A DNA stretch of 64,000 bases from an uncultured bacterium (GTDB taxonomy: Bacteria > Fidelibacterota > Marinisomatia > Marinisomatales > JABMOV01): positions 622 to 64,621 of the forward strand of contig CAYFMT010000016.1 of NCBI GenBank assembly GCA_964344305.1. The letters are read 5' to 3'. Shown here in pieces: positions 2,364-33,192 of this stretch. The notes below the pieces were generated by a model, which was given only the letters and a program-made list of their open reading frames with translations, had not been told where the DNA came from and made no database searches. The position numbers were made by a program, and so were the translations under genes. The stretch's first letter is position 1. Each line of letters opens with the position of its first letter.

Positions 2364-5300
2364 TTATTTCACAAGTAGCACTTTTTGTGTGCTGAAGTGC
2401 GTTTGTGTCTTGAATGTCACAAAGTAGATTCCTGACCCAACTGCATTACCGGAGTTTGATAATCCATCCCAGGTAACGCGGTAGACACCTTCATTGTATG
2501 GGTCATTTGTAAGAAGACGAATTTGCCTGCCTAAAATATCATAGATACTAATTCTAAGGTGGTCGCTCACCGGCAGGGTTATGGTAAATGACGTGCTGGG
2601 ATTAAATGGGTTTGGTGTTGCATCACTGATGGAAAACTCCATGGGAACACCCACATCTTCTCCTGAATCAATGGATAAGTTGATATCGCGATATGATCCG
2701 GTTCTATAGGCATTTCCTCGGAACAGGTTCCAGTATGGTGCGGTTGCCCCAGCAGTGGTTTTTAGATCTACAACCTGCAGCCCTACCGAAGAACCGATAA
2801 TGATCTCCAGGTCGTTATCCCCATCAATATCATCAATAATTGGTGTACTTTCCACGTTTCCACTGAACTGGATGGGCATATTCCCTTTGAGTGTCCCATC
2901 AAGTGCAAATGCCGTAATACCAGCATAGGTACCCATAACAATATCAGGTTCACCATCCCCATCAATATCACTCACTACAGGTGAAGAATATGTTAGCTGG
3001 TTAATATCCGTGGGAAAACCGGATACATAGGCATCTGATTCGACATCATAAGCATGAAGATTCTGGTCCAGACTGCCAAAGAGTATCTCAGGGTAGCCAT
3101 CCTCATTAAAATCGTAAAATGAGGGACTGGATTTCACCATTCCACCAGACGAAATTTGTTTCAACATGGTACCATCGGCTCCAAGGATATATACACTCTG
3201 ATCATCGCTTGCAGCAATGATCTCCAATGCTGCATCTCCCGTAACATTTGCTAGTGATGGAGGTGTGTTAATTCTGTTTCCTGTCGCGAAAGGAAAACCT
3301 GATTTTGCCTGACCGTCTGCTGTGTATACATGGATATTGTTGCCCCATGTACCCACGACGATCTCAACCTGTCCATCATTATCTATATCATCGACAGCGG
3401 GGGCTGTAAGAATGGCTTCACTTAAAACTACTGGAAATCCATCCAGATCGGTACCATCATGATTAATGACATGTATCTTCCCGCTTTGTCCATTCTCAAA
3501 TGTACCAAAGGCTATTTCTAATTCAGGATCTCCATCCATATTTGCAACTGCAGGTGCATCCATGATATATCCAGTAGCAACATATACCAGGTCATGGGAT
3601 CCATCGTGGTTGGTGACATACAGGTTACGATCCTTGGACCCGTAAATCAGTTCCAGATCGCCATCTCCCTGAACATCTGCCACCGCTGGTGAGGATCGGA
3701 GCTGGTTTCCAGTAGAATCAGGAAACCCTGCCAATAAATCTCCATCGGTATTCAATCCGTATAGTTTGTTGTCGTCGGCACCAAAATAGATTTCCTTTTC
3801 TCCATCACCATTCAAGTCATGGACAATAGGAGATGTCTTGACACTGTTTGCTGTAAAAGGAAATCCAGCCTGGTTCAGGCTTAACTCGATAAGAATCGTT
3901 TCCTCATTTACGTAAGATCCTGATCCCGCTCCTGCATACATGGTCACAAGAAATTCAACATTTCCTGTCACGGCTTCAGAAGTAGAAGAAAACTGAAATG
4001 AATCAAAGAGAGTGAATGAGGAAGACCCGCCGGGAATGGTGGACGTGAATTCGATCATATTATCAAGGATAGTGATTCTGGGATCATCTGTGGACAGGAC
4101 TGCAACCACGTCCGTGGCATCGGCCCATCCCTCTTCATTTCCAATGATAATTTTCGCATTTACCGTTTCACCAGGATTGAAGTTTCCGTCGCCATCTGTA
4201 TCATTCTGCAGGTTAACACCATCCACATATAAACTTGGGAAAATACCACCAGCCAGTGCCTTGAATACATTCAGTCTACCTGAACCCAGCATACCTGTCA
4301 TGCTTTCTGTATGGCTTTGTGAATCGCTATAATTTCGAACTGTACAATCCCTGTCCATGTCATCGTAGTAGTCAGTATTATCAATGATTTTTTGAATGAC
4401 CCAATCCTGTGACTCATCCGGAAACATGGACCAAACAAGCGCTACAGCACCTGCAGTGATGGGAGAAGAAAATGAGGTACCATACAAGTTACTATCGTAT
4501 CCATTTGCACCATCAACAGAATACACAGATTCACCAGGGGCACCTAAATCAACAGTGGGGCCTGCTGTAGCCCAGCAATTGAAATGATCGCCCTGACCGG
4601 TAGCCGTTACGGAAATGACATTATCATATCCACTGGGATAATGATCATCCAGATTCGTAACACCAAAATCCTGATTTCCATTGCCTGCGGATGCTACCAC
4701 AATCGATCCATATGTATTGTAGCAGGTATTGATCAGGTTTTGAGCAAAAGAGCTGAATTGGGTACTTCCCCAACTGCAATTGATGACATCGGCTCCCTGT
4801 TGCCCTGCAGCCAGAAGTCCATCATATCCAAAATCGATGTACCCATTGCTGGTATGAGATGCCTTTATGGGCATGATTTTCACAGAAAAACCGACTGAAG
4901 CTATTCCAGTACCATTGTCAGTTACACCGGATACACATCCAGAAACACTGGTACCATGTCCGTCACCGGGAACACAATAGGGATCATTGTCTTCAGCACC
5001 CCCGGAAGTAGCAGCAACATCCCAACCAATAAAATTATCTATAAATCCATCTCCATCGTCATCTACCCCATTCATGTCATCCGAGTCGAACTCCCATGAA
5101 CCGCCATTATCTATGACTGTGACACCATCGCCATCTGCATCTTCACCCAGGTTATTCCATATATTGTTGATCAAATCAGAATGGGTCCAGTGCACACCAT
5201 CATCTACAACAGCCACGACAATTTCTCTCGATGGATTGGTTCCTGGAATTTCACCGTTCTCAATATCCCACAGGTCCCAGGCATCATCTGCTTTAATATT

Positions 5301-5708
5301 TGGCAGTGCCCACTGTTGACCGAATTGTGGATCATTTGGAGTATACTCAGATCTTAGAATGGGCTTACGTTCTGCATTCAACAATCCCGTGGTTGAGTTG
5401 ATAACTTGAATGATATTCTGAAGATCAACTCTGTCAGAGGAAAGGGTAATTTCATAAATCCTATTCAAATAGACGTCGCCATCCCTGTCACTCGGTTTTG
5501 CAGATGAAAGCCACGGATGAAAATCTCTGGCACCAATATTGATTAATGCCTGATTAATATCCGGGTTGTTGGTCCATGCACCAGATTCACCAATAAATTG
5601 AAAATCTGTTAGCTGGTTATCGATATACACCAGGACGCGATCAGGATGGTATTCTGATGCTGACAGTATGGATAGAAATAGGATGAATGATCCAAATAGA
5701 TGCTTCAT
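2364..5708 (-). CDS. S8 (subtilisin-family) serine protease fused to ~8 FG-GAP/VCBS-type repeats and a T9SS C-terminal sorting domain
   Basis: Catalytic motifs are VVAVVDDGV (Asp), GDGHGTSVSG (His) and YGTSFSSPITAGA (Ser). Repeated D.[ND]GDG..E[IL]..G blades follow. The CTD is TPNPFNPSTSFTI...GIYFVTF...KVLLVK. Signal peptide MKHLFGSFILFLSILSA sets the start at 5708. Confidence 0.9.
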   Translation of the reverse strand: MKHLFGSFILFLSILSASEYHPDRVLVYIDNQLTDFQFIGESGAWTNNPDINQALINIGARDFHPWLSSAKPSDRDGDVYLNRIYEITLSSDRVDLQNIIQVINSTTGLLNAERKPILRSEYTPNDPQFGQQWALPNIKADDAWDLWDIENGEIPGTNPSREIVVAVVDDGVHWTHSDLINNIWNNLGEDADGDGVTVIDNGGSWEFDSDDMNGVDDDGDGFIDNFIGWDVAATSGGAEDNDPYCVPGDGHGTSVSGCVSGVTDNGTGIASVGFSVKIMPIKASHTSNGYIDFGYDGLLAAGQQGADVINCSWGSTQFSSFAQNLINTCYNTYGSIVVASAGNGNQDFGVTNLDDHYPSGYDNVISVTATGQGDHFNCWATAGPTVDLGAPGESVYSVDGANGYDSNLYGTSFSSPITAGAVALVWSMFPDESQDWVIQKIIDNTDYYDDMDRDCTVRNYSDSQSHTESMTGMLGSGRLNVFKALAGGIFPSLYVDGVNLQNDTDGDGNFNPGETVNAKIIIGNEEGWADATDVVAVLSTDDPRITILDNMIEFTSTIPGGSSSFTLFDSFQFSSTSEAVTGNVEFLVTMYAGAGSGSYVNEETILIELSLNQAGFPFTANSVKTSPIVHDLNGDGEKEIYFGADDNKLYGLNTDGDLLAGFPDSTGNQLRSSPAVADVQGDGDLELIYGSKDRNLYVTNHDGSHDLVYVATGYIMDAPAVANMDGDPELEIAFGTFENGQSGKIHVINHDGTDLDGFPVVLSEAILTAPAVDDIDNDGQVEIVVGTWGNNIHVYTADGQAKSGFPFATGNRINTPPSLANVTGDAALEIIAASDDQSVYILGADGTMLKQISSGGMVKSSPSFYDFNEDGYPEILFGSLDQNLHAYDVESDAYVSGFPTDINQLTYSSPVVSDIDGDGEPDIVMGTYAGITAFALDGTLKGNMPIQFSGNVESTPIIDDIDGDNDLEIIIGSSVGLQVVDLKTTAGATAPYWNLFRGNAYRTGSYRDINLSIDSGEDVGVPMEFSISDATPNPFNPSTSFTITLPVSDHLRISIYDILGRQIRLLTNDPYNEGVYRVTWDGLSNSGNAVGSGIYFVTFKTQTHFSTQKVLLVK

Positions 5709-5730
5709 AGTCCCCACTCGAAAGGTTAAG

Positions 5731-5755
5731 TGCCCCGGGAGCAACCCCGGGGCAT
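5731..5755 (-). terminator. GC-rich stem-loop downstream of the 937-aa gene (no clear U-tract)
   Basis: TGCCCCGGG-agcaa-CCCCGGGGCA forms a 9-bp GC stem. The minus-strand 3' flank is not T-rich, so terminator function is uncertain. Confidence 0.35.
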
Positions 5756-5760
5756 TCGGA

Positions 5761-8574
5761 TTATTTCATTAAGACCAGTTTCTTCGTATCGGTAAAGCTC
5801 TTACCTGTCGATACTGATCTGGATTCAATTGTATAGAAATACATGCCTGAGGATAACTCAGATGCATTCAATTGGAAACGATATTGACCAGGTGCCAAAT
5901 CCCTGTTTATGAGGGTTTTCACCTCACGTCCTGTAATATCATACAATGAGAGCCTTGTGGCTGATAGTTCAGCAATATCAAACTCAATAGTCGTGACAGG
6001 ATTAAATGGATTTGGATAGTTCTGCTTAAGGGCAAACGTCTCTGGTACATCCGGTGTCAGTTCATCATCAATTCCAACGGTGGCAGAATCCATATCTACC
6101 CTGATCATGATAGCGCCAGAGAAGTAGTTACTGAAGGGCTCCCATCCGGATCCCTGACCGATGTCCACATAACTGCGGGAACCATCAGAATCCGTGTCCA
6201 CACCAATAGGCGGTGTTTGGGCTGTTTCCATCCAGCCTACATAGAAATCTCCATCAGAGACTGTCACATTGTAATCTGAAACATTTTTTTCATTCCATCC
6301 CTGTGCGAATTGAACGACCACGCCTGTAAGTAAAACAGTCCCGGGCATGCCATTGGCACCATCGTCGTCCCACACCTGTGCCAGAGCAATACCATTGCCT
6401 TCAACATAATATTTCACACGTACAAGTGAAGATGGATATGTGACAGGTGTGAACTTCACAGCAAGGACATTTCCGTCCGCAACGTTGAAACTGGTATTGG
6501 GATTATCATCATCATAAACGATTTCATATACAGTCTGTGCTTCGGGAATTGCACATTCAGCTGATGATGGTGCTCCCTCTGTCTCACCATACACCATGGT
6601 AATCTGGTAGCAATACTCAGTACCATTTTGCACAAAAACATCATGGTATGATGTTGAAGTTAAACCCTGTCCGTTAAACATTGGGTTGAATGCACCACCG
6701 TCTACGCTGCGGTATACATTGTATTCCACATCTGCACCACCTGTTGATGTCACTTCGCCACGAATGCCCCATTCTCCATCGGGTAAACCGTTGGCAGCAG
6801 CCACATTGGCCCAGGTATCCCAGCCGCCTAGATTGGCCCATGATTGGGTACTTGGCGCAGAACTTTCATCCAGTGTTACACCAACGGTAGTTGATGCCTC
6901 TATGGCAAGAACGAAATCTCCTGCAAAAGTCCAATCCACTTCAACCTCGAGCCATTGGCCCGTTATGGTCGTGATGGCAGTTGAATAAAGTGCTGTTTCA
7001 CTTGGTCCCTGTAACCCAACTTCGTAAGCATACAGTGTGGTGGCACCAGCATTATTACCACCAAAGATATAAGCACTGTTTAGCGTAACGGAATCCACAC
7101 CAAATGGTGCATCAAAATGGGTACCCATAATAGCTGTCCCTGAGGTCATATTTATTTCATTTTCGAAATCACCGTCATCATACTGAACAAGACCATTGAA
7201 ATCTGCGCTTGGGTTTTCCCAGGTAACATCAATGACTGCATCTCCAGCTACTACATTCACATTTTGAACAGTTGGAACAGATTCTTCCAATAACACTGAC
7301 CATACATGGAAATCATCTATGAATAGACCTCCACCATTGCCACCATCATCATTACCGTCTGCATCTCCACCAATTCTGAATTTCACATTGGCTCCGGCAT
7401 AATCTGTAATATCCAACTGGGCATTTCCATTAAATGGATCCCCAGGCATATAAGTTGCCCATCCAAGACCACCTGGACGGGTTATATCACCATAATCGTA
7501 AAATACCTGCTCCCATAGAAAATCCACACCACTTGCAGGGGTCATGGAAACCTGATCGTCTGCGTTGTCAAGGAATAATTGAGTACCGTCTCCATCTTCA
7601 ACGGTTACATCATCAATTCTGAATCCGGTAATAGTGGCGTCATCACCTGTGCTGTAAGAAGGATCTGAACCGAAACCAAATCGGATAATAACATCCTGGC
7701 TTGCATAAGCTGCAAGATCAAATGTTACCAGATGCCAGTCCTGGTTTCCACCCCAACCGGCGGCCAGTTCCTGACAATCATAATAATCAGGATCATTGTA
7801 AATCCATCCATAGCCATCTGTAAAATCATATGCATCATCACCAGTGAGCAAACTCCAAGTTGCACCACCATCCGTTGAAATACGTACATTGGCCGCATCC
7901 CAGCCATTGGTACAGGTGCCACCCACAGATGCGCCTGCAGGATCTTCAATATCCCATTTCATCTGCGCTGTGAGCGTGCCCCCTGATGCAGGGATGGATA
8001 TGGAAGGCGTATCCAGGAACTGTAGCCATGCATCATTGTATCCACCAATATCTGTATCTGCACACCACCATGAGTTGCCTGCGTAGGCATTGTCTGATGA
8101 GGCATGGAAAAAGAGTGGAAGATCGTCCAGGTTGGTGATGAATACAGCATAATAATCTTCTAGAAGGTTATCCCCGTCACCATCAAAATCCGGCATGTCA
8201 CACCAGAGGTCAAAGTTGAATTTGAGAATTTCATTGTCTGATGACAACTCGGGAAGCGTAATGGATGGAGAATACAGATATGTGGTCATACTGTAATTGT
8301 CATCATCATAATTAAAACTATGGGTCGGACTCGATGAAGAAACATCTGTAAGTACCCATCCTGTATCGGCTAACCACCCGGAAACATCGCCTTCAAAATC
8401 ATCAAAGAAAATGGTTGTTGTATCAATTCGACTGTTAAAAACTCTTTCTACAGCTGGTGATTGATTATAAGCATTCAAGGATTGGAAAGCATCATCCGTA
8501 GCCGTTGTAGGTATCGGTTGTGCTGACCAGAGTAAACCAAGAAATACCAATAAAATAATCTGTTTTCGTTGCAT
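5761..8574 (-). CDS. large exported multidomain protein of unknown function with a T9SS C-terminal sorting domain
   Basis: 937-aa ORF with signal peptide MQRKQIILLVFLGLLWSAQP. It has one Asp-box (STDGGATWS) and an FN3-like segment (YNVYRSVDGGAFNP...YCYQITMVY). The CTD is QNYPNPFNPVTTIEFDI...GMYFYTI...KKLVLMK. I saw no catalytic motif. Confidence 0.75.
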   Translation of the reverse strand: MQRKQIILLVFLGLLWSAQPIPTTATDDAFQSLNAYNQSPAVERVFNSRIDTTTIFFDDFEGDVSGWLADTGWVLTDVSSSSPTHSFNYDDDNYSMTTYLYSPSITLPELSSDNEILKFNFDLWCDMPDFDGDGDNLLEDYYAVFITNLDDLPLFFHASSDNAYAGNSWWCADTDIGGYNDAWLQFLDTPSISIPASGGTLTAQMKWDIEDPAGASVGGTCTNGWDAANVRISTDGGATWSLLTGDDAYDFTDGYGWIYNDPDYYDCQELAAGWGGNQDWHLVTFDLAAYASQDVIIRFGFGSDPSYSTGDDATITGFRIDDVTVEDGDGTQLFLDNADDQVSMTPASGVDFLWEQVFYDYGDITRPGGLGWATYMPGDPFNGNAQLDITDYAGANVKFRIGGDADGNDDGGNGGGLFIDDFHVWSVLLEESVPTVQNVNVVAGDAVIDVTWENPSADFNGLVQYDDGDFENEINMTSGTAIMGTHFDAPFGVDSVTLNSAYIFGGNNAGATTLYAYEVGLQGPSETALYSTAITTITGQWLEVEVDWTFAGDFVLAIEASTTVGVTLDESSAPSTQSWANLGGWDTWANVAAANGLPDGEWGIRGEVTSTGGADVEYNVYRSVDGGAFNPMFNGQGLTSTSYHDVFVQNGTEYCYQITMVYGETEGAPSSAECAIPEAQTVYEIVYDDDNPNTSFNVADGNVLAVKFTPVTYPSSLVRVKYYVEGNGIALAQVWDDDGANGMPGTVLLTGVVVQFAQGWNEKNVSDYNVTVSDGDFYVGWMETAQTPPIGVDTDSDGSRSYVDIGQGSGWEPFSNYFSGAIMIRVDMDSATVGIDDELTPDVPETFALKQNYPNPFNPVTTIEFDIAELSATRLSLYDITGREVKTLINRDLAPGQYRFQLNASELSSGMYFYTIESRSVSTGKSFTDTKKLVLMK

Positions 8575-8600
8575 GGGTTATTCCCCTTACTTATGTTATT

Positions 8601-8641
8601 AAAATGGATACGGCACCAATCTCAGTTGGTACCGTATCCAT
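8601..8641 (-). terminator. rho-independent terminator after the BNR-protein gene
   Basis: ATGGATACGGCACC-loop-GGTACCGTATCCAT forms a 13/14-bp stem. It is followed on the minus strand by TTTTAATAAC. Confidence 0.6.
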
Positions 8642-8669
8642 GTGAAACCTTTGAATGTCTGCCCCGGTC

Positions 8670-10670
8670 TTACTTCATTAACACCAGTTTTTTGGTTTTC
8701 GTTTGACCTGCATAGTTCATGGTATAGAAATACACACCGCTTGCAAGGGATGAACCATCCACAGTCAATGCATGATTTCCTGTGGTCTGATGTTCATTCA
8801 CAAGAGTCTGTACTTTTGTTCCCCTGAGATCAAAAAGATCTATACTAACAACGCCATCACTCTCGATTGAATACTCAATAGAAGTGGTGGGGTTGAATGG
8901 GTTTGGATAATTTTGTGACAATGTGAAGTTTGATGGTACTTGCGTTTCATTGTCTGTAGACGCAACAGGATCCATTAAATGCCCAACATACACGCGTTGT
9001 TTGAAGTCTTCAAAGTTGGTTCCACCTACAGTGTTCACACTGAAGTCTGCCATCTGGAACATGAAGTAGGCATCTTCTTCAGTTGCGTATGGCGCGAAAT
9101 GAGGACTCATTTCAAAATTATCTTCTGTAATGGTTGATGGAGTATTGGTCACATTTCCATAGTCCGTCCAGGTCATACCGTAGTCAGTCGATTTTGATAC
9201 GTAAATATCAATATCACCGTATGTACCATTTGACGTATCATCCGCTACGGATGATGCAGCCCAGATGACACTGCCATCAGGAGACATGGCCATATCCGGA
9301 TACATATATTGCCATCCGCTGAATTCACCATAAACATAGGTGCCGTTCCATGATACGCTCATGTCCCGAACCTGTGAGGCTACCCACGTATTTTCATTTT
9401 CGGGTGTGGGATTGTAAAGATGGTACTGACCTGTTGCACCTTCGATGGATACCCAGATTGTGCTGTCTGATGCGGTAATCACCATATTTGATAAAATATG
9501 AAGTCCTCCATCATTGTCTACTTTTACATCGTAATCGTACCCTGCAAAGGCTTCATCCAATACAATCCAGGTTGTATCATCATTTTCATCAATACTGTAA
9601 AGTGAATCACCAAGAAGACCAGCATCTGTCATAATCTCATTAAGGATATCATCAGGAATGTAAGAATACCCTGATCCATCGATACCACCAGATGAAGTCC
9701 ATGTTGCGCCATAATCTTCTGTTTTCTTGTAGAAAAATGTATGAAGTGCTACTGGTCCACCGGTATCTGAATCATGGCGATAGCTTGACATTGCAACATA
9801 GCCTACACCGTTGTCATTCACATGAAATTCAGGTCCACCGGTATACCCGGAAGTGAATCCGTCATTGGGAATATCCACCAGCAAGTATGGTGCAGACATT
9901 CCAAGAAAACCAAAGAGGTAATAGTTGTTTCTAAGCAGATAATATCTGTCTGGACCCAGGCTTTCCCCAAAGAGAGCAAGCATCACTTCATAGGATCCGT
10001 TGTTGATCATCTGTGCTTGGCTGACCCAGAGATCCGGTGGATCACAGGGTAATGTCTGACAGCCAGTGTTCAGATCATAGACAGGAGATGCATAACTGCC
10101 ACCAAGCCATCCGAATTCATCGTAGGTGTACATGGCGCGACCACCATTTTCACCGCCACCGGAGCCATCTGAAGTATATTCATTCCAGACTGGGGTAGGT
10201 TGACTTGTTGCAGTACCGGCTGCACTTGGGTACCTAGCCATTGGGGCATCGGGAGTTACACCATTAGGATAGGAATAATTCAGACCGACAGCCACCTGCC
10301 AGGAACCCGCAGAACCATCCATTGATTGTGCTGCGCCCAGCTGTCCGGAAGGTCCGTCCAAACCTGCCCATTGACGGTACACAGCCAGAAGTCCTGATCC
10401 TGGTACCCATACAAGTGGGCTTGTTGTATTGGAGTACATTCCATACCCATTTTTCGATGAATCAACCAGGACGGATTCAAATGAAAAATCCCTGCTGGTA
10501 TGACGAGCAATGGGAGATGCGGGACCATAAACAGTCACCTGTTCATTGGCCGGATCTTCTGCTCGAAAATCTGATTGAAATTTGGCTGATAGTGGTTGTT
10601 GCATTTTATGCGTTTCCCCAAAGGATAACCCAACGCACAAAATTAACCCTAGTATTATCGCTTTTTTCAT
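8670..10670 (-). CDS. BNR/Asp-box repeat (sialidase-fold-like) exported protein with a T9SS C-terminal sorting domain
   Basis: Signal peptide MKKAIILGLILCVGLSFG sets the start at 10670. Asp-boxes are TEDYGATWTS and STDYGMTWTD. The CTD is QNYPNPFNPTTSIEYSI...GVYFYTM...KKLVLMK. Confidence 0.8.
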   Translation of the reverse strand: MKKAIILGLILCVGLSFGETHKMQQPLSAKFQSDFRAEDPANEQVTVYGPASPIARHTSRDFSFESVLVDSSKNGYGMYSNTTSPLVWVPGSGLLAVYRQWAGLDGPSGQLGAAQSMDGSAGSWQVAVGLNYSYPNGVTPDAPMARYPSAAGTATSQPTPVWNEYTSDGSGGGENGGRAMYTYDEFGWLGGSYASPVYDLNTGCQTLPCDPPDLWVSQAQMINNGSYEVMLALFGESLGPDRYYLLRNNYYLFGFLGMSAPYLLVDIPNDGFTSGYTGGPEFHVNDNGVGYVAMSSYRHDSDTGGPVALHTFFYKKTEDYGATWTSSGGIDGSGYSYIPDDILNEIMTDAGLLGDSLYSIDENDDTTWIVLDEAFAGYDYDVKVDNDGGLHILSNMVITASDSTIWVSIEGATGQYHLYNPTPENENTWVASQVRDMSVSWNGTYVYGEFSGWQYMYPDMAMSPDGSVIWAASSVADDTSNGTYGDIDIYVSKSTDYGMTWTDYGNVTNTPSTITEDNFEMSPHFAPYATEEDAYFMFQMADFSVNTVGGTNFEDFKQRVYVGHLMDPVASTDNETQVPSNFTLSQNYPNPFNPTTSIEYSIESDGVVSIDLFDLRGTKVQTLVNEHQTTGNHALTVDGSSLASGVYFYTMNYAGQTKTKKLVLMK

Positions 10671-10786
10671 AGTTGCTAACTCCAGTCTATTTAAAAATAT
10701 GCCTTTATAAATTGTCGATGAAAGTAATCTTAAGTCGGGCACATGTCAAGTGCCAGAACTGTAATTAGTGTTTCATGTGACCTGAA

Positions 10787-11918
10787 CCTTAAAATTCGAA
10801 ATTGAGACCGAACTGGTGAGTGGGTTCAATGGTGGAATTACCTACAAATGCATAATCTACCGATAAGGCAGATCCACCAAGCTGGACATTCACTCCACCT
10901 CCTACGGCCATCCCCATGGTATCATGATTCAAATGACTCCCACAACGGATAAATGCAAACTCGCCATATCCATATTCTAATCCAACACTGCCATGCATCA
11001 CATAATCATTGGACTTGATCCCATCCACCGCCACTGTCAGGCGATGAACATCACTCTTGATGAAATGGCTCTCCTTACCCATGATATCATTGGAGACTCC
11101 AATACGGAACGTCAATGGCAATGGGAATGATTCTGTGACCTTATGCAACTGTCCATCAGGATCAATACTGTCAGGTACTGTCTCTACAAGTCCTTCTCCA
11201 TGATACTGTACTTCTGGTCCAAAATTCGTCACACTCATCCCAAGGTTAAATCCATACAAACCTGTGTCAAAGTTTGAACCAATATCAAAAGCCACTCCCT
11301 GCATGTATACCGTATAGATATCATCACGGATATAATCCAAGCTCATGCCGATCTTCAACCTGTCTGTCATTTGACGGGCATACACTATCTTCAGGGATTT
11401 ACTCGATACATTGAACTTCTCCCCTGTCCCATCTGGATACACTTCATTCGTCACATCCATGGGACCACTGTCCAACCAGAACAGGTGAATACCAAAATAA
11501 TCTGAACCGGATAACCGTACACCATAGGCCAGTACATTATGACTGATGCCTACCATATACTCTGTGCGGGAAAAATACGTCTCCATGTTCTTTACATGGC
11601 CCACAGATGCAGGGTTATAGGGAATACCCTGGACACCCCTGCCATTGGACGTGAATGTCCCTGCCATACCGATGGCGCGGGCTCCTGTCTCCAGTTTTAA
11701 GTAGTTCCCTGCTGACTGGGCGACCTTACTCACCACATCTGGAATATCAGGATACTGCCCTAATACCAGTGAAAGAAAAACTGCTGCTGTTATGGATCGT
11801 CGTATACTCATTACCGCACCACCGCAAATTTGCCTACATGTTTCTTGTCATCACTCTCCACCACATAGATATATAATCCCGGCGCTATCTCCTGGTTGTT
11901 CTCACTGCGAAGATTCCA
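10787..11918. repeat. 1132-bp direct repeat, copy A (PorV-like gene plus the 3' 108 nt of the upstream cargo gene)
   Basis: It matches 14015-15146 at an offset of 3228 nt with no difference found. The 340-aa sense ORFs are identical. The 73-aa antisense ORFs are also identical. Spot-checked nucleotide lines match. Boundaries are fixed by the first mismatches at 10786/14014 and 11919/15147. Confidence 0.9.
10789..11811 (-). CDS. PorV/PorQ-family-like outer-membrane beta-barrel, copy 1
   Basis: 340 aa with a signal peptide. The N-terminal motif NYLKLETGARAIGMAGTFTS...IPYNPASVG is typical of PorV/PorQ-type T9SS barrels. The sequence has an alternating beta-strand pattern and ends ...FGLNFEF. 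Its ATG overlaps the upstream stop (TAATG). Confidence 0.7.
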   Translation of the reverse strand: MSIRRSITAAVFLSLVLGQYPDIPDVVSKVAQSAGNYLKLETGARAIGMAGTFTSNGRGVQGIPYNPASVGHVKNMETYFSRTEYMVGISHNVLAYGVRLSGSDYFGIHLFWLDSGPMDVTNEVYPDGTGEKFNVSSKSLKIVYARQMTDRLKIGMSLDYIRDDIYTVYMQGVAFDIGSNFDTGLYGFNLGMSVTNFGPEVQYHGEGLVETVPDSIDPDGQLHKVTESFPLPLTFRIGVSNDIMGKESHFIKSDVHRLTVAVDGIKSNDYVMHGSVGLEYGYGEFAFIRCGSHLNHDTMGMAVGGGVNVQLGGSALSVDYAFVGNSTIEPTHQFGLNFEF

Positions 11919-14003
11919 CCAGAGATTTCCATCAAAATCATTATCATGCTCCAGCGCTACGACTCTTTCACCATAGGCAGTAAATATCTGAATTCTACAT
12001 TTTTGCGGCAGGTGCGTAAACCGAAGCCTTCTTGTATCTGCTGATTCATTAAATGCAGACCGTACAATATATGGATTTGGAACAACAGAAATGGTTTCTA
12101 GCTCATCCTGTGTCACTTCATGAGGTCTTCCAAGAGCAGACATATCAGCAAGCCAACTGTCCCCATCATTAAAGAATTTCTTGGTTTTGATGATGACAAA
12201 ATCGCCATTTCTCCAGGGATAATGAGGTTTCCAAGGGTTCTCATTGATACCATCGCTGTCGTTATCTATAAACTCCTGTGGGGTGATGCTACTTGTAATA
12301 ATTTCGGAAGCACGCCAGATCATTCCTTCATAAGTCACCCTGTCGCCGGGGTTGTACGTAATCCCCGCTGACCAGGCTGTGTCCAGTACAGGGAATGCCA
12401 CGTCATAATTGTACTCTATATACAAATTGTAAGTGGTTTGTGACCTGAGTGTACCACCTACATTAAGTGTGTCTGCCCTGAAGGTCAGTTTTTCATTGGA
12501 TGTCCAATAGCAATCCTGATAGCCAGGATCTGGGTTACTGGGATCCGGGGTTCCGAACAATCCAAGATCAGAATGGAAAATTCCAATTGGTTTTCCAGTA
12601 GTCATATTGGTGATCTTAAACGGCAACTCTGCCTTTAACAATGGAAATTCACCAATACATCCATTAGGTGGAATTGTGGCCAGCACAGTATCAACAGTAG
12701 AAGAAGAAAATTCAATTTTGTAATCAAAACCCGGCTTCAACTGATAGGCATTTGAATTAAAGTACTCCAATTCAAAATTCAGGGCACCAATGACTGAACT
12801 GTCTGCATTCCATTCCAATTCATGAATGGGTGAAAAATCTTCCTCTAAATCGATAATAGATTGAGGAGGATTTTCAAACTTTACTCGAATGCCATCGAAT
12901 ACGGTACTCCAGAAATTCTGTGGACCATTTGTGGGTTGAACAATGGCTTTATAATTAGGAACATACACCGTTCCACCGTTTAATTCCGCGCCCGGGAGAT
13001 TCATCAATGTATCAATGGCACCAGCTGAATAGGCAGTTGTGTCATACCCAATCACGTCCACAGCGCGCTGGGAAACAGAATCATCCACTGCATACACATA
13101 CACATATGGATCTCTATTTGCCATTTCCTCCACAGGGTTGGATGGCAGCCATGCATTCACTTCAAATTTGATAAGATCAGAAACCAGGTCATCCTTATCC
13201 GCAACAAAATAATCTATGGGTCCGTTGCCTGAATTGTTGTCATCAGGAACGATAAAGCTGGAAATATCATCGGGATCGGGAAAAGTAATATTACTTGAAT
13301 TATACCCGGGGATAACGGTAGCAAAGTTTCGGTCGAGATTGCTGGTGCCCAGAGGAGATTCGAGGCTTTTATACCCGTTACCTTCTGCATCTGTAACATA
13401 TCGATCGGGATTGGTTTTCACCCACATGGTATCGGCATCAAAAAATCCATCACCATCTGGATCTGAATATTCAATGGTAAACGTACGCAGGCCCAGATCA
13501 AAGGCTGTAACACAATAGGTGTATTCAATGCCATCAAATACATCTTCATCAATAAACCCATTGGCCAAGCCTGTATTTTCTCCTATTGAATATCGTATAT
13601 TGTACGGATCAGGTCCTGTGTAACTTGTGTCTCGAGTCAATCCATTCCCACAGTCAGTGTAGGAATAAATACAATGATCTTCATCCTCTTCCTGACTGAG
13701 GTCAAATTGTGCATAGGGTCGCCAACCAACAGTGTCCCCGTTGAAATCGTACATAACGTCCGAAGAAGAGCCCCATGTTTTTCCGCCATCGATGCTTCTG
13801 TAAACACGGTACCCCTCAAAATCTGCATAGCCGGTAGCACTATCGATGGATGTCTGTGCAATATTATCCCAGGATACAAATATTTTTCCATGCTCTACAG
13901 TGGCATACAGGGTTGGTGTTTCAGGAGGTGTCATATCGGCAGGATCAATCAGTGTCTGGGACCAACCAAATGATAGCAGTAATAAACCAAGTATTCTTTT
14001 CAT
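11811..14003 (-). CDS. exported 730-aa protein with an FN3-like module and a variant T9SS-like CTD (paralogue of the C-terminal part of the 1029-aa protein)
   Basis: Signal peptide MKRILGLLLLSFGWSQ sets the start at 14003. The module GYADFEGYRVYRSIDGGKTWG is shared with the 15039-18128 product. The CTD is VVPNPYIVRSAFNE...RLRFTHLP...IAPGLYIYVVESDDKKHVGKFAVVR. Confidence 0.8.
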   Translation of the reverse strand: MKRILGLLLLSFGWSQTLIDPADMTPPETPTLYATVEHGKIFVSWDNIAQTSIDSATGYADFEGYRVYRSIDGGKTWGSSSDVMYDFNGDTVGWRPYAQFDLSQEEDEDHCIYSYTDCGNGLTRDTSYTGPDPYNIRYSIGENTGLANGFIDEDVFDGIEYTYCVTAFDLGLRTFTIEYSDPDGDGFFDADTMWVKTNPDRYVTDAEGNGYKSLESPLGTSNLDRNFATVIPGYNSSNITFPDPDDISSFIVPDDNNSGNGPIDYFVADKDDLVSDLIKFEVNAWLPSNPVEEMANRDPYVYVYAVDDSVSQRAVDVIGYDTTAYSAGAIDTLMNLPGAELNGGTVYVPNYKAIVQPTNGPQNFWSTVFDGIRVKFENPPQSIIDLEEDFSPIHELEWNADSSVIGALNFELEYFNSNAYQLKPGFDYKIEFSSSTVDTVLATIPPNGCIGEFPLLKAELPFKITNMTTGKPIGIFHSDLGLFGTPDPSNPDPGYQDCYWTSNEKLTFRADTLNVGGTLRSQTTYNLYIEYNYDVAFPVLDTAWSAGITYNPGDRVTYEGMIWRASEIITSSITPQEFIDNDSDGINENPWKPHYPWRNGDFVIIKTKKFFNDGDSWLADMSALGRPHEVTQDELETISVVPNPYIVRSAFNESADTRRLRFTHLPQKCRIQIFTAYGERVVALEHDNDFDGNLWWNLRSENNQEIAPGLYIYVVESDDKKHVGKFAVVR

Positions 14004-14014
14004 ATTCAATCGTG

Positions 14015-15146
14015 CCTTAAAATTCGAAATTGAGACCGAACTGGTGAGTGGGTTCAATGGTGGAATTACCTACAAATGCATAATCTACCGATAAGGCAGA
14101 TCCACCAAGCTGGACATTCACTCCACCTCCTACGGCCATCCCCATGGTATCATGATTCAAATGACTCCCACAACGGATAAATGCAAACTCGCCATATCCA
14201 TATTCTAATCCAACACTGCCATGCATCACATAATCATTGGACTTGATCCCATCCACCGCCACTGTCAGGCGATGAACATCACTCTTGATGAAATGGCTCT
14301 CCTTACCCATGATATCATTGGAGACTCCAATACGGAACGTCAATGGCAATGGGAATGATTCTGTGACCTTATGCAACTGTCCATCAGGATCAATACTGTC
14401 AGGTACTGTCTCTACAAGTCCTTCTCCATGATACTGTACTTCTGGTCCAAAATTCGTCACACTCATCCCAAGGTTAAATCCATACAAACCTGTGTCAAAG
14501 TTTGAACCAATATCAAAAGCCACTCCCTGCATGTATACCGTATAGATATCATCACGGATATAATCCAAGCTCATGCCGATCTTCAACCTGTCTGTCATTT
14601 GACGGGCATACACTATCTTCAGGGATTTACTCGATACATTGAACTTCTCCCCTGTCCCATCTGGATACACTTCATTCGTCACATCCATGGGACCACTGTC
14701 CAACCAGAACAGGTGAATACCAAAATAATCTGAACCGGATAACCGTACACCATAGGCCAGTACATTATGACTGATGCCTACCATATACTCTGTGCGGGAA
14801 AAATACGTCTCCATGTTCTTTACATGGCCCACAGATGCAGGGTTATAGGGAATACCCTGGACACCCCTGCCATTGGACGTGAATGTCCCTGCCATACCGA
14901 TGGCGCGGGCTCCTGTCTCCAGTTTTAAGTAGTTCCCTGCTGACTGGGCGACCTTACTCACCACATCTGGAATATCAGGATACTGCCCTAATACCAGTGA
15001 AAGAAAAACTGCTGCTGTTATGGATCGTCGTATACTCATTACCGCACCACCGCAAATTTGCCTACATGTTTCTTGTCATCACTCTCCACCACATAGATAT
15101 ATAATCCCGGCGCTATCTCCTGGTTGTTCTCACTGCGAAGATTCCA
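14015..15146. repeat. 1132-bp direct repeat, copy B
   Basis: See copy A (10787-11918). Confidence 0.9.
14017..15039 (-). CDS. PorV/PorQ-family-like outer-membrane beta-barrel, copy 2 (identical to copy 1)
   Basis: The 340-aa product is identical to that of 10789-11811, with the same TAATG overlap with the upstream cargo stop. Confidence 0.7.
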   Translation of the reverse strand: MSIRRSITAAVFLSLVLGQYPDIPDVVSKVAQSAGNYLKLETGARAIGMAGTFTSNGRGVQGIPYNPASVGHVKNMETYFSRTEYMVGISHNVLAYGVRLSGSDYFGIHLFWLDSGPMDVTNEVYPDGTGEKFNVSSKSLKIVYARQMTDRLKIGMSLDYIRDDIYTVYMQGVAFDIGSNFDTGLYGFNLGMSVTNFGPEVQYHGEGLVETVPDSIDPDGQLHKVTESFPLPLTFRIGVSNDIMGKESHFIKSDVHRLTVAVDGIKSNDYVMHGSVGLEYGYGEFAFIRCGSHLNHDTMGMAVGGGVNVQLGGSALSVDYAFVGNSTIEPTHQFGLNFEF

Positions 15147-18128
15147 GAAAACCGCACCCACATTGGGATCATCGTGCTCAATGGTATTCACATATTCTCC
15201 ATTAACGGTGTACACATGAATGGTGGCCTGTTCCGGTAGATTGGTAAACCGGATAGATCGTCTTACTTCTGATTCATTCATTCTGGAATGAACGATATAC
15301 GGATTGGGGACCACATTAACATTGCTCAAATCAACCTGAGGACTGGATCCGGGATACACCGTTACAAAATTGGGATCCAGAATGGTGGTCCCCCGGGAGT
15401 TTTCAATGGATGAATAGCCATGTGGTGTTGACCAGTGATCAGGATTTGCCTGAGACCAGATTGTATCAGGGTCAAATCCGCCCTGATTGCTGTCATAATT
15501 CCAGTCGATGACATAATCCGAATCCACGCCCATATCATAGGCTGTCACTGAGTAGGTATAAGCCAGGCCATCTACAACCTGTGTATCCACCCAATAATAA
15601 TTGTATTCCTTGCCATTGATGACCGTATCCTTGCGAATGGATTCAAATCCGGTGTTCGACCCCAAACTGAACCAGGGTGCATGGGGATCAGGACCTGCCA
15701 CATCACGACCACGTATGTCACCGGAATCACAGGAATCAGGAGCATAGATACAATGGGTAGAATCTTCCTCTACGCTCAAATCATATTGTGCAACAGGTTG
15801 CCAGCCAACATGAATATTTCTATTGTCGAGAATCTTCTTATCCGGTGTTCCCCAGGTGGAACCTTCATCGGTGCTTTTGTAAATCTTGTACCCTTCAAAA
15901 TCCGCATAGCCTGTTACCACATCCTTGGATGCTTCTGCGATATCGTCCCAGTAAAGGGTGACCCTGCCCGTTTCAATGCGCGCAAGTACATTAGGTCTGG
16001 TCGGTGGAGTATATCCCTGGTAATGAGAATTGTACATGATCTGGGCAAACTTTGCATTGGCTTTCAGGTCTTGCTCATTCTGTCCAAATATGATACAAAA
16101 AGAAAATGGTACTTCTTCACCCACCGGGAAATCAAACGGACCACAGCTCATGATCAACACACAGTCCAGTCCATCCGGTGCAAATTCTTCCAATCCCTCT
16201 AGGGAATCAAAATGTGGATTGAGGTTGATATCCAGATCTGTTTCCTCGTTGGGGGTATGGAAATGCCAGGATTTTTCATCGTCTGTTAAATTGGTTGTGT
16301 CTCCGGAAATCACTTTCAATAGAATTTCTTCTTTATTAAGTGCCTGAGGTCTTCCAGGAGCACCAGCGCAGCAGTTTCCATTGCTTTCACCGGTGACTAC
16401 ACCGGGACGATTGTACCAGTCAAACCAGTGCCAGTCCGTCATTTTTAGTTTTTCCCCGGGATAAATATCAACAATCCCATCAAGATTTAAATCCACTTCC
16501 GTGGTGGCCAAAGGTGAATCCAGAAGCTGGGTTGCCACCATCCCCATATCCGTTACACCGTTGCTGTTTCCATCCTTGTCCTCAATGATGGCCATACTGA
16601 CACGTAACAGCTGTCCATTGACCTCGACACAGGGTTCTGTTGTATCTGTCAGACAGTCGTAATATCTCATAAAATCATCTGCATTGGTGTGTGGCCAAAA
16701 GCTACCATTTATATCCGTGGATAATACATCAGCATCCATGTAAAACCCGAGATACACACCTTTATAATCGAATCCCTTGCCCCGGTTCAGCTTGGTACCA
16801 TCAGGCATAATCATTCCTTCATGGGAAACACCATTTTCATCGACCCAGTCGCCGCTTTCATTGCGAACCTGGACTGTGACGAACATGATATCCTCAGCAT
16901 AGGCAACACCGTATGAATGGGCTGCAGACATAACACGAAGCCCCAGTGGATAACCAGTCTGGAGGTACTCATTATTGGTATTCACAAGATTTCCACGGTG
17001 AGCCCATCTGTCATCAAATTCCATATACACATCTGTGTCGGAGATAAAACGTCCTTCAACAGGTTCCCAGCAATCGGGATCTGCACGATTCCCGGTACAA
17101 CCATCAGGCCACTCAGAAGGATCGAGTGCACCCAGATAATCCTCTGCCCACCATCCGGGCCAAAACGCTTCCGTTGCCCCCGTTTCCTCATTCATGCGCG
17201 TGGGCCATGTCTGGGAATAATTGCTGTGAGCAAGCAAAGGATAAGGGTCGTCACTATCGGTGAAAGGTGTATCACCAAATATATCTCCTGCAGAGATAAT
17301 GGTATTGTGTGTATTCTCCCGTGCTTTCGTGGAGGCATGCCAGTCAGTATTATTGCTCGGATTGTAGCGGGTAAACCAGGACTCCAGTGACGTGGCTCCA
17401 TAGAACACATAACGGTCATCTTCTGTCCATTCTTCCTTGTCTTCACCATAATCATAAATGTCAAATTCACTGGTTCGTTCTTTCAAAGCTGGTCGCAAAC
17501 CCCAGGGATATATTAACCCGATACGCGATGTAGACTTGTTTGGGTCTTTTGTGCGTTCTTCAAGTGCCTCAACTCCCAGAAAAATCCGTTCTCCGCCCGG
17601 GTCAATCCCCCACTGGTAAATATTGTCAATAGAAGTCATGGATGTTTTTTCTTCGCCAACAACACCGCGGTCATCTTCATAATCAAACACTATGCCTACA
17701 AACGTTGTATCCCCATCGTCAAACCAGGCATCGTAAGCATCCTCTGAAGCAAACACCTTAATGGTATTGTTATTGGACCCGGGGTTTTCCTGGACTTCGT
17801 CCCAGGTAAACCGGCTGGTATACAGTTGACCTGCTACACCTGCCACAAATCCAACGTGAGGCAGATAGGTGAAATCACCCCAAAGGCCAGCAGGATGTAC
17901 ATCCCAGTCAATATAGTTCCCATAGTTTCCTATGGCGTTTTTAACCTTGCCCTGTAGGAGATACCCGCGAGCACGATCATTCATTGGATTTGTTGGAAAT
18001 GGATGATCCCCAATCCTCTCGGTAGATGATGGGATTCTATGTTGTTCAACATAGTTTTCAGGTTCCCTTGGCTCAGACCCAGAGAGAATCATTGATAAAA
18101 GCGTGAAGGGTATTAAAATTCGTTTCAT
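15039..18128 (-). CDS. exported 1029-aa protein of unknown function with an FN3-like module and a variant T9SS-like CTD
   Basis: Signal peptide MKRILIPFTLLSMILSG. I recognised no catalytic motif. The C-terminal third is homologous to the 730-aa protein (GYADFEGYKIYKSTDEGSTWG). The CTD is VVPNPYIVHSRMNE...IRFTNLP...GKFAVVR. Confidence 0.8.
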   Translation of the reverse strand: MKRILIPFTLLSMILSGSEPREPENYVEQHRIPSSTERIGDHPFPTNPMNDRARGYLLQGKVKNAIGNYGNYIDWDVHPAGLWGDFTYLPHVGFVAGVAGQLYTSRFTWDEVQENPGSNNNTIKVFASEDAYDAWFDDGDTTFVGIVFDYEDDRGVVGEEKTSMTSIDNIYQWGIDPGGERIFLGVEALEERTKDPNKSTSRIGLIYPWGLRPALKERTSEFDIYDYGEDKEEWTEDDRYVFYGATSLESWFTRYNPSNNTDWHASTKARENTHNTIISAGDIFGDTPFTDSDDPYPLLAHSNYSQTWPTRMNEETGATEAFWPGWWAEDYLGALDPSEWPDGCTGNRADPDCWEPVEGRFISDTDVYMEFDDRWAHRGNLVNTNNEYLQTGYPLGLRVMSAAHSYGVAYAEDIMFVTVQVRNESGDWVDENGVSHEGMIMPDGTKLNRGKGFDYKGVYLGFYMDADVLSTDINGSFWPHTNADDFMRYYDCLTDTTEPCVEVNGQLLRVSMAIIEDKDGNSNGVTDMGMVATQLLDSPLATTEVDLNLDGIVDIYPGEKLKMTDWHWFDWYNRPGVVTGESNGNCCAGAPGRPQALNKEEILLKVISGDTTNLTDDEKSWHFHTPNEETDLDINLNPHFDSLEGLEEFAPDGLDCVLIMSCGPFDFPVGEEVPFSFCIIFGQNEQDLKANAKFAQIMYNSHYQGYTPPTRPNVLARIETGRVTLYWDDIAEASKDVVTGYADFEGYKIYKSTDEGSTWGTPDKKILDNRNIHVGWQPVAQYDLSVEEDSTHCIYAPDSCDSGDIRGRDVAGPDPHAPWFSLGSNTGFESIRKDTVINGKEYNYYWVDTQVVDGLAYTYSVTAYDMGVDSDYVIDWNYDSNQGGFDPDTIWSQANPDHWSTPHGYSSIENSRGTTILDPNFVTVYPGSSPQVDLSNVNVVPNPYIVHSRMNESEVRRSIRFTNLPEQATIHVYTVNGEYVNTIEHDDPNVGAVFWNLRSENNQEIAPGLYIYVVESDDKKHVGKFAVVR

Positions 18129-18136
18129 AATTATGC

Positions 18137-21100
18137 CTATTTGAAGTCCACCCTGATAAAGAAGTTGAATTCACGTGGATTACTATACATCCAAGGATTG
18201 TCATAAAATGAACCTGATTTATCAACTTTCTCTGCAGGTAATCCTACTGCATCAGTATAATATTCTCCAGGATCATCTGCCGTACCAGTAAGTGCATAAA
18301 CATCCAATTCATTTCTAATATCAAATGCATTGAAGATGTTCAGACCCATGGACACCTTGAAATCATTCACTATAATGCCTTTCTGGAACATTATATTCGC
18401 CTGTTTAAATGCAGGGGATCTTTTGGTATTTATGTTCTTTTTATCCTCTTCTGGTTTATTACCATTCCAGATAATGGGAGTATAAGGATATCCTGATTGG
18501 TAAAATAGATTCATCCCTGCCGAAACACCAAAAGGAAGAAAAGTATAAAATGAAGCAGCGAAGTCATGTGTTCTATCATATGGCATAAGAAATTCATAGC
18601 TGGGTGCTCCCTTATATTCTTCTCCTAAACTCTTGAAATCATATGCGCTATTTCCTTTTGCAGTGGAATAGGTGTATTGAATCATGGCATGAACAAGCTG
18701 ACCACGGTTTTGAAGTGTAAAGTCGATTCCTTTCGCGCTTCCATAATCCTGGTTGTCAGCCACCTGATAATCATACACGCCGGATCGGCTGTATTTATAC
18801 GTTACCATCTGATCCATGTTTTTTACCCATCCCATGAGTGAAAAGGCCCAGTGACGGGTAAATTGAACATTAAATCCAAATTCATAGGATTGGTTTCTGG
18901 ATGCATTCATGGTTGGATTTCCAAGAGCTCCACCGCTTTCTTCAAACAACGCTTCTGGATCCTGGAGCCTGTTTGTATTTAAAAAGACATTCTGATATAC
19001 TGGAGTCTGATAATAGAGACCATAACTGAATACGAATGTAGATTTATCTGTGATAACATGACTGATACCCAGTCGAGGACTGATCTTATAAAACCACTGG
19101 GATTCATGCATGAACACACGTTCATGGGCAAATCCTGGATTATCGTTCACCGGCTCACCAGAATCCCATTTTCCATTCTGATTTACATCCGAATAGTACC
19201 AAGGCTTATCTGGGGAAAGTCCACCGGTGGAATCAGACCAGATATTGGTGTTATAGTTCACAGCATCCAGTCGAATACCTGCATTCACCACCATCCAGGG
19301 CACTTCGTAGGTGTTCTGAAGATAAATACTAACTTCTTCCGGCTCACGGAAATCATCCCACTTATCATTGCCATTGGCATCCTCAAAATCTTCACCCTTG
19401 TCCCATTGACCATTACTTTCACCAAAATCCGGTCCCTCATATTCTTCATCTGTAGGCAGCAATCCGTCAGGACCTGTGTCTTCCCAATATTCCGCAAAGG
19501 ATTGGACAATGGCTCCATCTGTTCCAAGCCAGGGATTGGTTACTTCGTAGAAATTCAGCTTATGCGATTTGTAATCAAATCCGGTACGCAACCGCCATTC
19601 ATCCGTCATCTGACTTGTTACATCGATTCGGATCTCATTTGTAACGGCACGCGATGTACCATAAAACCTGTCATGACCACCAAAGGCACGACCTTCATCC
19701 CATGATTCACCAAAGCTGGGCATATAGTAGTATGGATTATTCGCCCTGCCGTCGTATCGAGGTCCAAATTGGGCTCCCAGTCCCCAGCCCCACCACGGGT
19801 CTTGTTCATATTGAAGATCAATATGGTGATAATCAAAAAATTTATTCTCGTCATATTCATACATGGAAGGGAACAGCCAGTAGCTTCCATCCCTGTAATA
19901 GGCTTCCTCAACAAACTCTGGACCATCCCATTTGCCATTGCCATTTTGATCATGGTTTGAGTTGAAGCCATCTACACCTACATCAAAAACACCGTTACCA
20001 TCTCTATCATCGAAATCTTCTGCAACTTCCCAGTTATAAATACCTGGAGTGGCACCATAATACCAGCCGGAATTGTCATCCCTGCGCGTGTAGTAAAGTG
20101 TATCACCATTTTGAGAGGTTGTATACGGCACCACGTATGGATTGTATGGATCAGAAATACTTTTGTTCGGACCGGCAGGATATCGCCATTCGTACCAATC
20201 AGGATACCCATCCGAATCGCTGTCTTCCCAGCGAACGCCCTGGAACTGGTCCTGTGTAAACTGGGATAATCTTAGTGTATAAAATAATCGCTTTGTGAGG
20301 GATTGGTTCATCTCAAATGTGTATCGGCGTGTATCACGGAACAGCTCATTTTGTCCATTGTCCCAATAGAGGAACTGGGTCTTAAAGCCTTTCCTGTGGG
20401 CATTCACATCCCAGAAGGATACATTGAATCGTAAGGTGTTTGAATGGCGATAGGCTAATTTTGCAAACACATCGTAAGTTTTGTCAAAACCAAATCCACG
20501 GAATCCCTTTACATTATCCCATGGCTGTACCAGGTTTTCCCTGTTAATGGTATTTGCCGGGTCTTCAGGATTATTTTCGTATGCAATGTCATCAAATTCC
20601 AGTACACGATAGTTTTCACGGTCTGTCCATTGGCCAGAGAACCAGTACGTCAGTTTGTCGAAAAACGGTATTGGTCCACCCAACCCAAGGGTATAGTCGT
20701 TGTATCCACGAAGCTCATCATACTTGTTGCCCAGACCTGCACCCACCATGCTTGTTTCGTACTTGAACTTGTACCGGAAATCTTTTGACCCGGTGGCCGT
20801 GTGCATATTAGAAACAGCGGACATGGCATCACCATACTCAGCGTTGAATCCTCCAGGTTGCCAGTCAAATTCTGCCACGGCAAATAGATTTAAGCGTGTC
20901 CCATTGCCAATACCTCCAAAAATGGGATTTCGTATATACAATCCATCGATCATGTACGCAATCTCACCGGCACGACCTCCGCGGACATGGACTTCTTCCA
21001 GGCCACGTTCTTCATGGTCCGGGATACCGGTTGTCATACTCTCAACACGGACTACACCGGATTGAAGGGAGTACAATTCTGTCAAATCCCTGATTGGAAG

Positions 21101-23625: not shown

Positions 23626-23700
23626 GATTTTTCGCAGATTTTTGAAAAAGAATGGCGAAAATATACACCTTAAGACGCCCTTAATGAACAGATTAATTTC

Positions 23701-33116: not shown

Positions 33117-33192
33117 TTCACCGATTAAGATTTTTATAGGGAAAACTAAAAATATCTTCCTCAAATGCCTATAGAAATCAGGTGCCAGTCTG

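Follow-up and report, generated by a model that had tools for sequence, protein, structure and literature searches.

Probable recurrent gene conversion between the PorV/PorQ-family barrel genes of two tandem cargo-barrel cassettes in Marinisomatales

Twin cassettes and the repeat they share

We analyzed a window of 64,000 nucleotides (nt) from an uncultured bacterium of the Marinisomatales (contig CAYFMT010000016.1 of GenBank assembly GCA_964344305.1, positions 622 to 64,621 of the forward strand), which carries two tandem cassettes, named A and B by their order. Each consists of a gene for a large putative type IX secretion system (T9SS) cargo protein and a gene, V, for an outer-membrane barrel of the PorV/PorQ family, and all four genes lie on the minus strand. 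Cargo A (15039–18128) has 1029 amino acids (aa) and cargo B (11811–14003) has 730 aa and a predicted signal peptide; both have a variant T9SS C-terminal domain (CTD) and share a further domain. The barrel genes at 14017–15039 (copy A) and 10789–11811 (copy B) are open reading frames (ORFs) that encode an identical protein of 340 aa. In each cassette the cargo stop codon and the barrel ATG share one nucleotide (TAATG), and 13 nt separate the stop codon of barrel A from the start of cargo B, which is most likely the ATG at 14003, with the signal peptide MKRILGLLLLSFGWS, and not the TTG at 14057.

The barrel genes are part of a repeat unit of 1132 nt (R), found at 10787–11918 (copy 1, cassette B) and at 14015–15146 (copy 2, cassette A, probably the donor type), with an offset of 3228 nt. 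Position-by-position comparison of the two copies yielded no mismatch, and the same pair was seeded by a repeat search of the window. Exactly two copies of R are present in the genome, a metagenome-assembled genome (MAG) of 2.35 Mb in 56 contigs. Besides the barrel gene, R includes the last 35 cargo codons (WNLRS...GKFAVVR) with the stop codon, together 108 nt, and 2 nt beyond the barrel stop, where its lower edge lies. Below 10787/14015 the identity in 100-nt windows is about 25–34%, which is the random level. The upper edge, which begins at the TGG of the WNLRS motif, lies within sequence that is still homologous: beyond 11918/15146 the identity drops from 100% to 56–62% (100-nt windows, 200 nt examined), still inside the CTD coding region.

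The original prediction, made from the sequence of this stretch, had described an exact direct repeat of 1132 bp with sharp edges, a match of 340/340 residues and a start of identity 2 nt after the barrel stop, all of which the exact alignment confirmed. Its extension by 108 nt into the cargo 3’ end also stood, with the correction that this corresponds to 35 codons and a stop rather than about 36 codons. The cargo genes are indeed homologous but diverged beyond 11918/15146, although the tryptophan of WNLRS, which had been placed outside, belongs to the tract. The matching antisense ORF of 73 aa is present and follows trivially from the nucleotide identity.

The barrel protein scores 143 bits with the NF033709 profile of the PorV/PorQ family (cut-off 90), and it remains far below the equivalog level both for PorV proper (NF033710, 43.3 bits vs 250) and for PorQ proper (NF033711, 62.1 vs 220). 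By these scores it is a member of the PorV/PorQ family and not a canonical PorV or PorQ. The Pfam search yielded no match for the barrel, and neither the barrel nor the two cargos matched any chain of the PDB as single-sequence queries; only a profile built from 11 barrel orthologues found Flavobacterium PorV (6h3i_F, E 6e-11) among the PDB chains. The AlphaFold model of the barrel, which is of moderate quality (pLDDT 62, pTM 0.63), shows a multi-strand barrel with PorV in the substrate-bound translocon as its top fold match in the PDB (8gl6_F, E 1.9e-12, TMq 0.62) and with TodX, FadL and OmpG next in rank, so that the predicted fold is of the FadL-type beta-barrel kind nearest to solved PorV. 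The genome encodes SprA (568 bits in its best segment, 721 bits as the total of the frame, cut-off 200) and PorU (550 bits, cut-off 420), and hence a T9SS is present.

Cargos A and B are 43% identical over the 224-aa shared domain and 63% identical over the 104-aa CTD. Neither CTD reaches the cut-off of a known class: with the type A profiles (TIGR04183/PF18962) cargo A scores 18.8 bits vs 23 and cargo B has no match, and with the type B profile (CHU_C, PF13585) cargo B scores 18.2 bits vs 27, its only, sub-threshold, match. Cargo A has sub-threshold matches to FlgD_ig and Por_Secre_tail and weak matches to the C-termini of PorZ and PorU. Among 28 related CTDs, sub-threshold matches to the type A profile were found in nine and to CHU_C in 12. 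The CTD of cargo A was modeled as a seven-strand beta-sandwich (pLDDT 81), and its best matches in the PDB are the CTD of PorZ (5m11, E 3.9e-5, TMq 0.66), PorU (6za2), the CTD of NucA in the translocon (8glk_D) and the CTD of RgpB (7pq4). As modeled, the cargo CTD thus resembles solved T9SS CTDs at the fold level. PorZ and PorU are T9SS proteins with uncleaved CTDs, which are held by PorQ and PorV, respectively (PMC5562754; PMC10202324).

Barrel and cargo evolution across Marinisomatales

The locus was found in at least seven families of Marinisomatales with a conserved order: an upstream protein (U), a receptor of the TonB type, cargo A, barrel, cargo B, barrel and further T9SS cargos. We compared 34 species-level genomes that have both barrels on one contig, the window and 33 others. 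Within 30 of these 34 genomes the barrel ORFs are 97.25–100% identical to each other, whereas the nearest barrel from another genome shows 60.7–88.6% identity. The pairs are completely identical in 17 genomes, and in eight more the stop codon is the sole difference; the latter is the only kind of difference in the single-cell genomes L071 and L082. Homogenized pairs are found as well in assemblies that are not subject to short-read collapse: the complete 2.14-Mb chromosome L102 (99.5%, five mismatches), the long-read MAGs L056 (ORFs 100% identical) and L085 (98.3% over the 527 nt available), and the 10-contig genome L061 (also G026), where 28 mismatches are scattered between the barrels. The four remaining genomes have diverged pairs: G001 (L048), which belongs to the same genus as the window, with 76%, and L111, L117 and L119 (also G028) with about 50%. 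The identities are therefore bimodal, at least 97.25% or at most 76%, with none between. This comparison with orthologous loci, which had been proposed to see whether the barrels are homogenized elsewhere, shows that they are.

The phylogenies of the barrels and of the cargos have different shapes. In the barrel tree, copies A and B group by genome in every homogenized genome, with stems of 0.012–0.58 substitutions per site; those of L111, L117 and L119 fall into a clade of A copies (support 99) and a clade of B copies (support 100). The tree of the domain shared by the cargos, which lies only a few hundred bases upstream of each barrel, is divided by a single change into an A clade of 26 rows and a B clade of 27 rows (support 96). 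Since the cargo domain splits by position, the cassette duplication must be older than all sampled lineages, and the trees show it to be ancient, predating the radiation of the sampled Marinisomatales. The alignments likewise show a barrel gene and a short, variable 3’ piece of the cargo gene that have been homogenized repeatedly, lineage by lineage, while the rest of the cargos diverged. This is the pattern of concerted evolution: paralogues within a genome are closer than orthologues whose orthology is fixed by synteny, and the duplication is older than the homogenized state.

The edges of the homogenized tract are also regular. The 3’ edge is within 0–9 nt of the barrel stop in every genome, which can be ascribed to the end of cassette homology at this point, with the cargo-B start following barrel A and an unrelated intergenic region following barrel B. 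The 5’ edge is probably set where the cargo CTDs become too different, and it falls into two classes. In most genomes it lies at about -21 to -38 nt, so that the tract covers the last seven to nine cargo codons, (H)(I/V)GKFA(V/I)(V/I)R, which are universally conserved; in the window and in L049, L051–L053, L058 and L064 it lies at -98 to -108 nt.

As ungapped comparison of the A and B tails is misleading at indels, we used nucleotide edges and a motif test instead. Cargo A has the motif NNQE[IV][AS]PGLY in every genome with a readable tail, and cargo B has xGxx[VI]xPGLY, except for the genomes with long tracts and G001, in which cargo B has the A-type motif. Both tails of the window carry NNQEIAPGLY, and the tail of cargo B within the tract (11814–11918, minus strand; WNLRSENNQEIAPGLYIYVVESDDKKHVGKFAVVR) is accordingly A-type by motif. 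The A-type motif in cargo B of the long-tract clade indicates copying of the tail from A to B in the ancestor of the window’s clade; the motifs and edges show an ancestral tract that, on this reading of them, reached about 105 nt into the CTD, with the edge kept by later events. The genome G001 is peculiar in that barrels with 76% identity stand beside tails with 82–100% identity. In seven genomes (L066, L071, L072, L076, L082, L086 and L092) cargo B (about 1190 aa) has no recognizable CTD sequence upstream of its last nine residues, (Y/F)HIGKFAVIR, and these nine residues lie in the converted tract adjoining the barrel.

Several lineages have a single barrel gene and keep both cargos, in the order A-V-B (L098–L101 and L091) or A-B-V (L097, L105, L106, L108, L109, L113 and L115). 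A single barrel sequence thus seems able to serve both cargos.

The window’s own genome has recA. It also has two tuf genes for elongation factor Tu (396 aa; G000:C2:16763–17978 and 32188–33403), which are 100% identical over 1216 nt and 15 kb apart; tuf genes are a textbook pair for gene conversion. Another exact direct repeat, of 888 nt with a period of 1011 (G000:C3:72724–73611 and 73735–74622), lies inside one 776-aa ORF with a CTD-like tail (72358–74688, minus strand) and may be an internal domain duplication kept identical or an effect of the assembly.

Explanations for the identical barrels

We consider R to be the product of recent, recurrent and non-reciprocal homologous recombination, that is, gene conversion, between the two tandem cargo-barrel cassettes, and assign to this explanation a probability of about 0.85. 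Gene conversion had already been suggested in the original prediction, and the homogenization of the same gene pair in 30 of 34 related genomes on the background of an ancient duplication bears it out. Conversion between the direct repeats would depend on RecA, and near-identical copies would continue to recombine, so that the process could sustain itself. Copies that pass a divergence threshold would escape permanently, which would fit the bimodal identities and the escape of G001 soon after its split from the window’s lineage. As for function, the barrels may anchor the PorZ/PorU-like CTDs of both cargos at the surface, or shuttle them, in a non-covalent and interchangeable manner, by analogy with the pairs PorQ-PorZ and PorV-PorU and with pairs of type B CTDs and PorP (PMC5562754; PMC9143113; PMC12618676). 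If the barrels are interchangeable, their uniformity would be tolerated or even favored, and the two copies could mainly supply dosage via translational coupling.

Four points weigh against this explanation or parts of it. The junction of cargo A with R is known from the window’s own contig alone. Short-read assemblers may traverse a collapsed repeat node twice and pop bubbles, and therefore the 100% identity in the window could mask a few differences. The barrel tree is weakly rooted and has a long B-type branch, so that the direction of conversion is settled for the CTD tail only and not for the barrel ORF itself. Finally, sequence comparison and analogy are the basis from which the edge model was inferred, as were the proposed roles as interchangeable anchors and in dosage.

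It is possible, though we hold it only tentatively, that conversion is real and at the same time driven by selection, with the barrel and the terminal CTD strand forming a co-adapted module that has to be identical for both cargos. The identical tract includes, in nearly all genomes, the last seven to nine residues of both cargos, which are retained even where cargo B has lost other CTD features; one barrel can apparently serve both cargos in the single-barrel lineages; and the modeled CTD fold is nearest to the barrel-bound CTDs of PorZ and PorU. However, the end motif is conserved in all species, and its protein-level identity needs no explanation beyond purifying selection. Moreover, upstream of this motif cargos A and B differ in most genomes despite identical barrels, and the tails of G001 (L048) resemble each other more closely than its barrels do. 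The suggestion that the CTD tail and its partner barrel are kept identical by co-evolution, made along with that of gene conversion, is thus not valid as a general rule: in most genomes the tract extends only about 21–38 nt into the cargo gene, identical barrels are combined with different tails, and G001 shows the reverse. A broader proposal seems to us similarly doubtful, namely that the locus is one of about eight cassettes in the genome which represent an undescribed T9SS arrangement, where a PorZ/PorU-like and probably uncleaved CTD would be anchored by its own PorV-like barrel, and where the twins would be kept uniform by selection too, since either barrel would have to accept both cargos.

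An assembly artefact, either one cassette duplicated by the assembler or two differing copies collapsed to one node that was traversed twice, is improbable. It could be argued from the fragmented state of the genome (a 56-contig MAG), from the fact that R breaks or collapses other assemblies (G023, L063 and L095) and from the few real differences in long-read relatives (five in L102, 28 in L061). However, an exact look-up of the barrel protein returned six contigs of project PRJEB17505, independently assembled with MEGAHIT (k127) or by Logan, in all of which, when aligned, R was 100% identical to the window, and these assemblies branch exactly at both edges. Contig L127, which occurs in eight samples, consists of exactly the 1132 nt of R and equals repeat copy 1; L122 contains the cargo-B 3’ flank, R and the flank of the downstream gene; L124 joins R to the cargo-B start flank; and L125 joins R to the downstream flank. 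Three of the four junctions of R (cargo B to R, R to cargo B and R to the downstream gene) are thus present in independent contigs, and it follows that the reads contain two different right-hand contexts of R and the left-hand context of cargo B. Furthermore, 34 genomes from many projects, among them single-cell genomes, long-read MAGs and a complete chromosome, have the two copies in synteny, and a collapse would require an identity of at least about 95% anyway, which would still imply conversion. The artefact named as an alternative in the original prediction can therefore be largely rejected, given the stand-alone contig and the three junctions in independent assemblies and the identity of 99.5–100% in long-read or complete relatives.

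The assemblies also gave some observations of their own. The stand-alone contig is the output expected from a de Bruijn graph for a repeat with two contexts on each side. Logan contig L123 (ERR2281804_28429) matches 12238–10787 and 15146–13748 of the window and thereby links the cargo-B 3’ end, R and the cargo-B start; the gene order of the window has no such B-R-B path, which may be an arbitrary choice of the assembler, or a sign of circular excision or of a triplicated variant. Failures at R were seen in L063 (TMED46) and L095 (MED586), which are merged-consensus contigs with many single N and without cargo B, and in G023 (L060/L059), which has a gap of 100 N at the position of barrel B and this copy on a separate contig of 5.3 kb.

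Independent recent duplications, by which a barrel (with the tail) would have been newly copied downstream of cargo B in each lineage, are very improbable. Tandem duplicates can recur, and the single-barrel lineages (A-V-B and A-B-V) show gain and loss. But about 30 insertions would be needed at one site, each with edges at the stop codon and 21–108 nt into a pre-existing homologous CTD, while the cargos are paralogues of ancient origin, each with a CTD of its own, the A and B barrels that four genomes retain at these positions are old and diverged and form A and B clades, and pairs with 97–99.5% identity (L061, L084, L092 and L102) represent intermediate ages at the same site.

Chance similarity or purifying selection alone was rejected, because all synonymous sites are identical within genomes and the orthologues differ by 11–39% at the nucleotide level, and so was a mobile element, as R encodes only the barrel and the cargo tail, sits only at two syntenic sites and has no inverted repeats.

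Genomic setting and comparison with known systems

The cassettes are flanked by other genes of the conserved locus, all on the minus strand. Upstream of cargo A lies the gene for a TonB-dependent-receptor-like protein of 1127 aa (18137–21520), the first conserved gene of the locus, which has CarboxypepD_reg and Plug domains and is syntenic in related loci. In most loci the gene upstream of the receptor is that of the conserved protein U (728 aa, 21526–23712 in the window), which has only a weak DUF3108-like match. The region 2364–10742, on the downstream side of the twin cassettes, encodes three large proteins with ordinary type A CTDs: a 690-aa protein (8670–10742; Por_Secre_tail 42–45 bits, above the cut-off), whose non-homologous upstream flank determines the 3’ edge of repeat copy 1, a 937-aa protein with an InhA-like MAM domain, and an S8 subtilase of 1126 aa that has an FG-GAP propeller. 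Taken together, the locus resembles a surface protein-degradation island.

Six further cassettes were found in the same genome, at about 17.9–19.2 kb of C18, 55.1–56.4 and 81.3–83.1 kb of C3, 31.1–32.4 and 49.4–50.8 kb of C14, and 131.6–133.0 kb of C1. Each comprises a large protein (719–1376 aa) with the same CTD class (...G[KR]F.VI[KR]) and a barrel that exceeds the NF033709 cut-off. In four of them the barrel gene comes directly after that of the large protein (-4 to +12 nt), and in the other two the distance is 122 or 558 nt. No account of PorV-like paralogue cassettes in Marinimicrobia turned up in the literature search.

Recurrent concerted evolution at the scale of an order is rare in prokaryotes, and the barrels add a clean and well-sampled case in which the adjacent cargo domain, evolving by position, serves as a built-in control. 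It is further characterized by a bimodal pattern of converting or escaped pairs and by a datable direction of copying, from A to B, for the CTD tail. A single barrel sequence, and in certain lineages a single barrel gene, is common to two different surface cargos of uncultured SAR406 bacteria, which provides testable information on the recognition of CTDs by PorV-like shuttles. For genome scanning, the case documents how a real repeat looks along with the signs of assembly failure (a gap of N, the loss of cargo B and a separate contig of just the 1132 nt). If the twin barrels are indeed kept by selection, this would be the first outer-membrane or T9SS case of order-wide, long-lasting concerted evolution, and the homogenized, escaped and single-barrel lineages would constitute a natural experiment on the specificity between shuttle and CTD.

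The arrangement can be compared with three known systems. Cassettes in which a cargo gene is followed by a dedicated barrel gene, in several paralogous pairs, are known for cargos with type B CTDs and PorP/SprF-like barrels of Flavobacterium johnsoniae (PMC12618676; PMC9143113), where one shuttle can serve several orphan cargos. In contrast, the barrel described here belongs to the PorV/PorQ family, and the CTD is under the type B (CHU_C) cut-off. No report of homogenized shuttle genes in a system of the F. johnsoniae type was found in the literature searched.

The pairs PorQ-PorZ and PorV-PorU of Porphyromonas gingivalis (PMC5562754; PMC10202324) are similar in that the barrel is in the PorV/PorQ family and the CTD fold of the partner matches the CTDs of PorZ and PorU. 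They differ in that our barrel is no equivalog of PorV or PorQ and the cargos, apart from the CTD, have no relation to PorZ or PorU. Here, moreover, the putative partners are encoded by adjacent, translationally overlapping genes, and about eight such cassettes are present in this genome.

With respect to evolution, a survey of 69 prokaryote orders identified 26 genes with long-lasting, recurrent, order-wide concerted evolution, none of which is an outer-membrane, secretion or T9SS gene (Wang & Chen 2018, PMC6053082). As with tufA/tufB and the genes of this survey, the barrels are old paralogues at fixed syntenic positions, near-identical in each genome while the orthologues diverge. The recurrence of the pattern across the species of an order, with one copy lost at times, is also shared with tufA/tufB, and the window’s own genome shows both cases. 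Unlike tufA/tufB, which is a core cytoplasmic gene pair, the barrels are tandem outer-membrane genes of a secretion system, 3.2 kb apart, the tract takes in a piece of the neighboring gene, and four lineages have visibly escaped. Concerted evolution is thus a known process, to which this case adds a pair of PorV-like barrels in T9SS cassettes.

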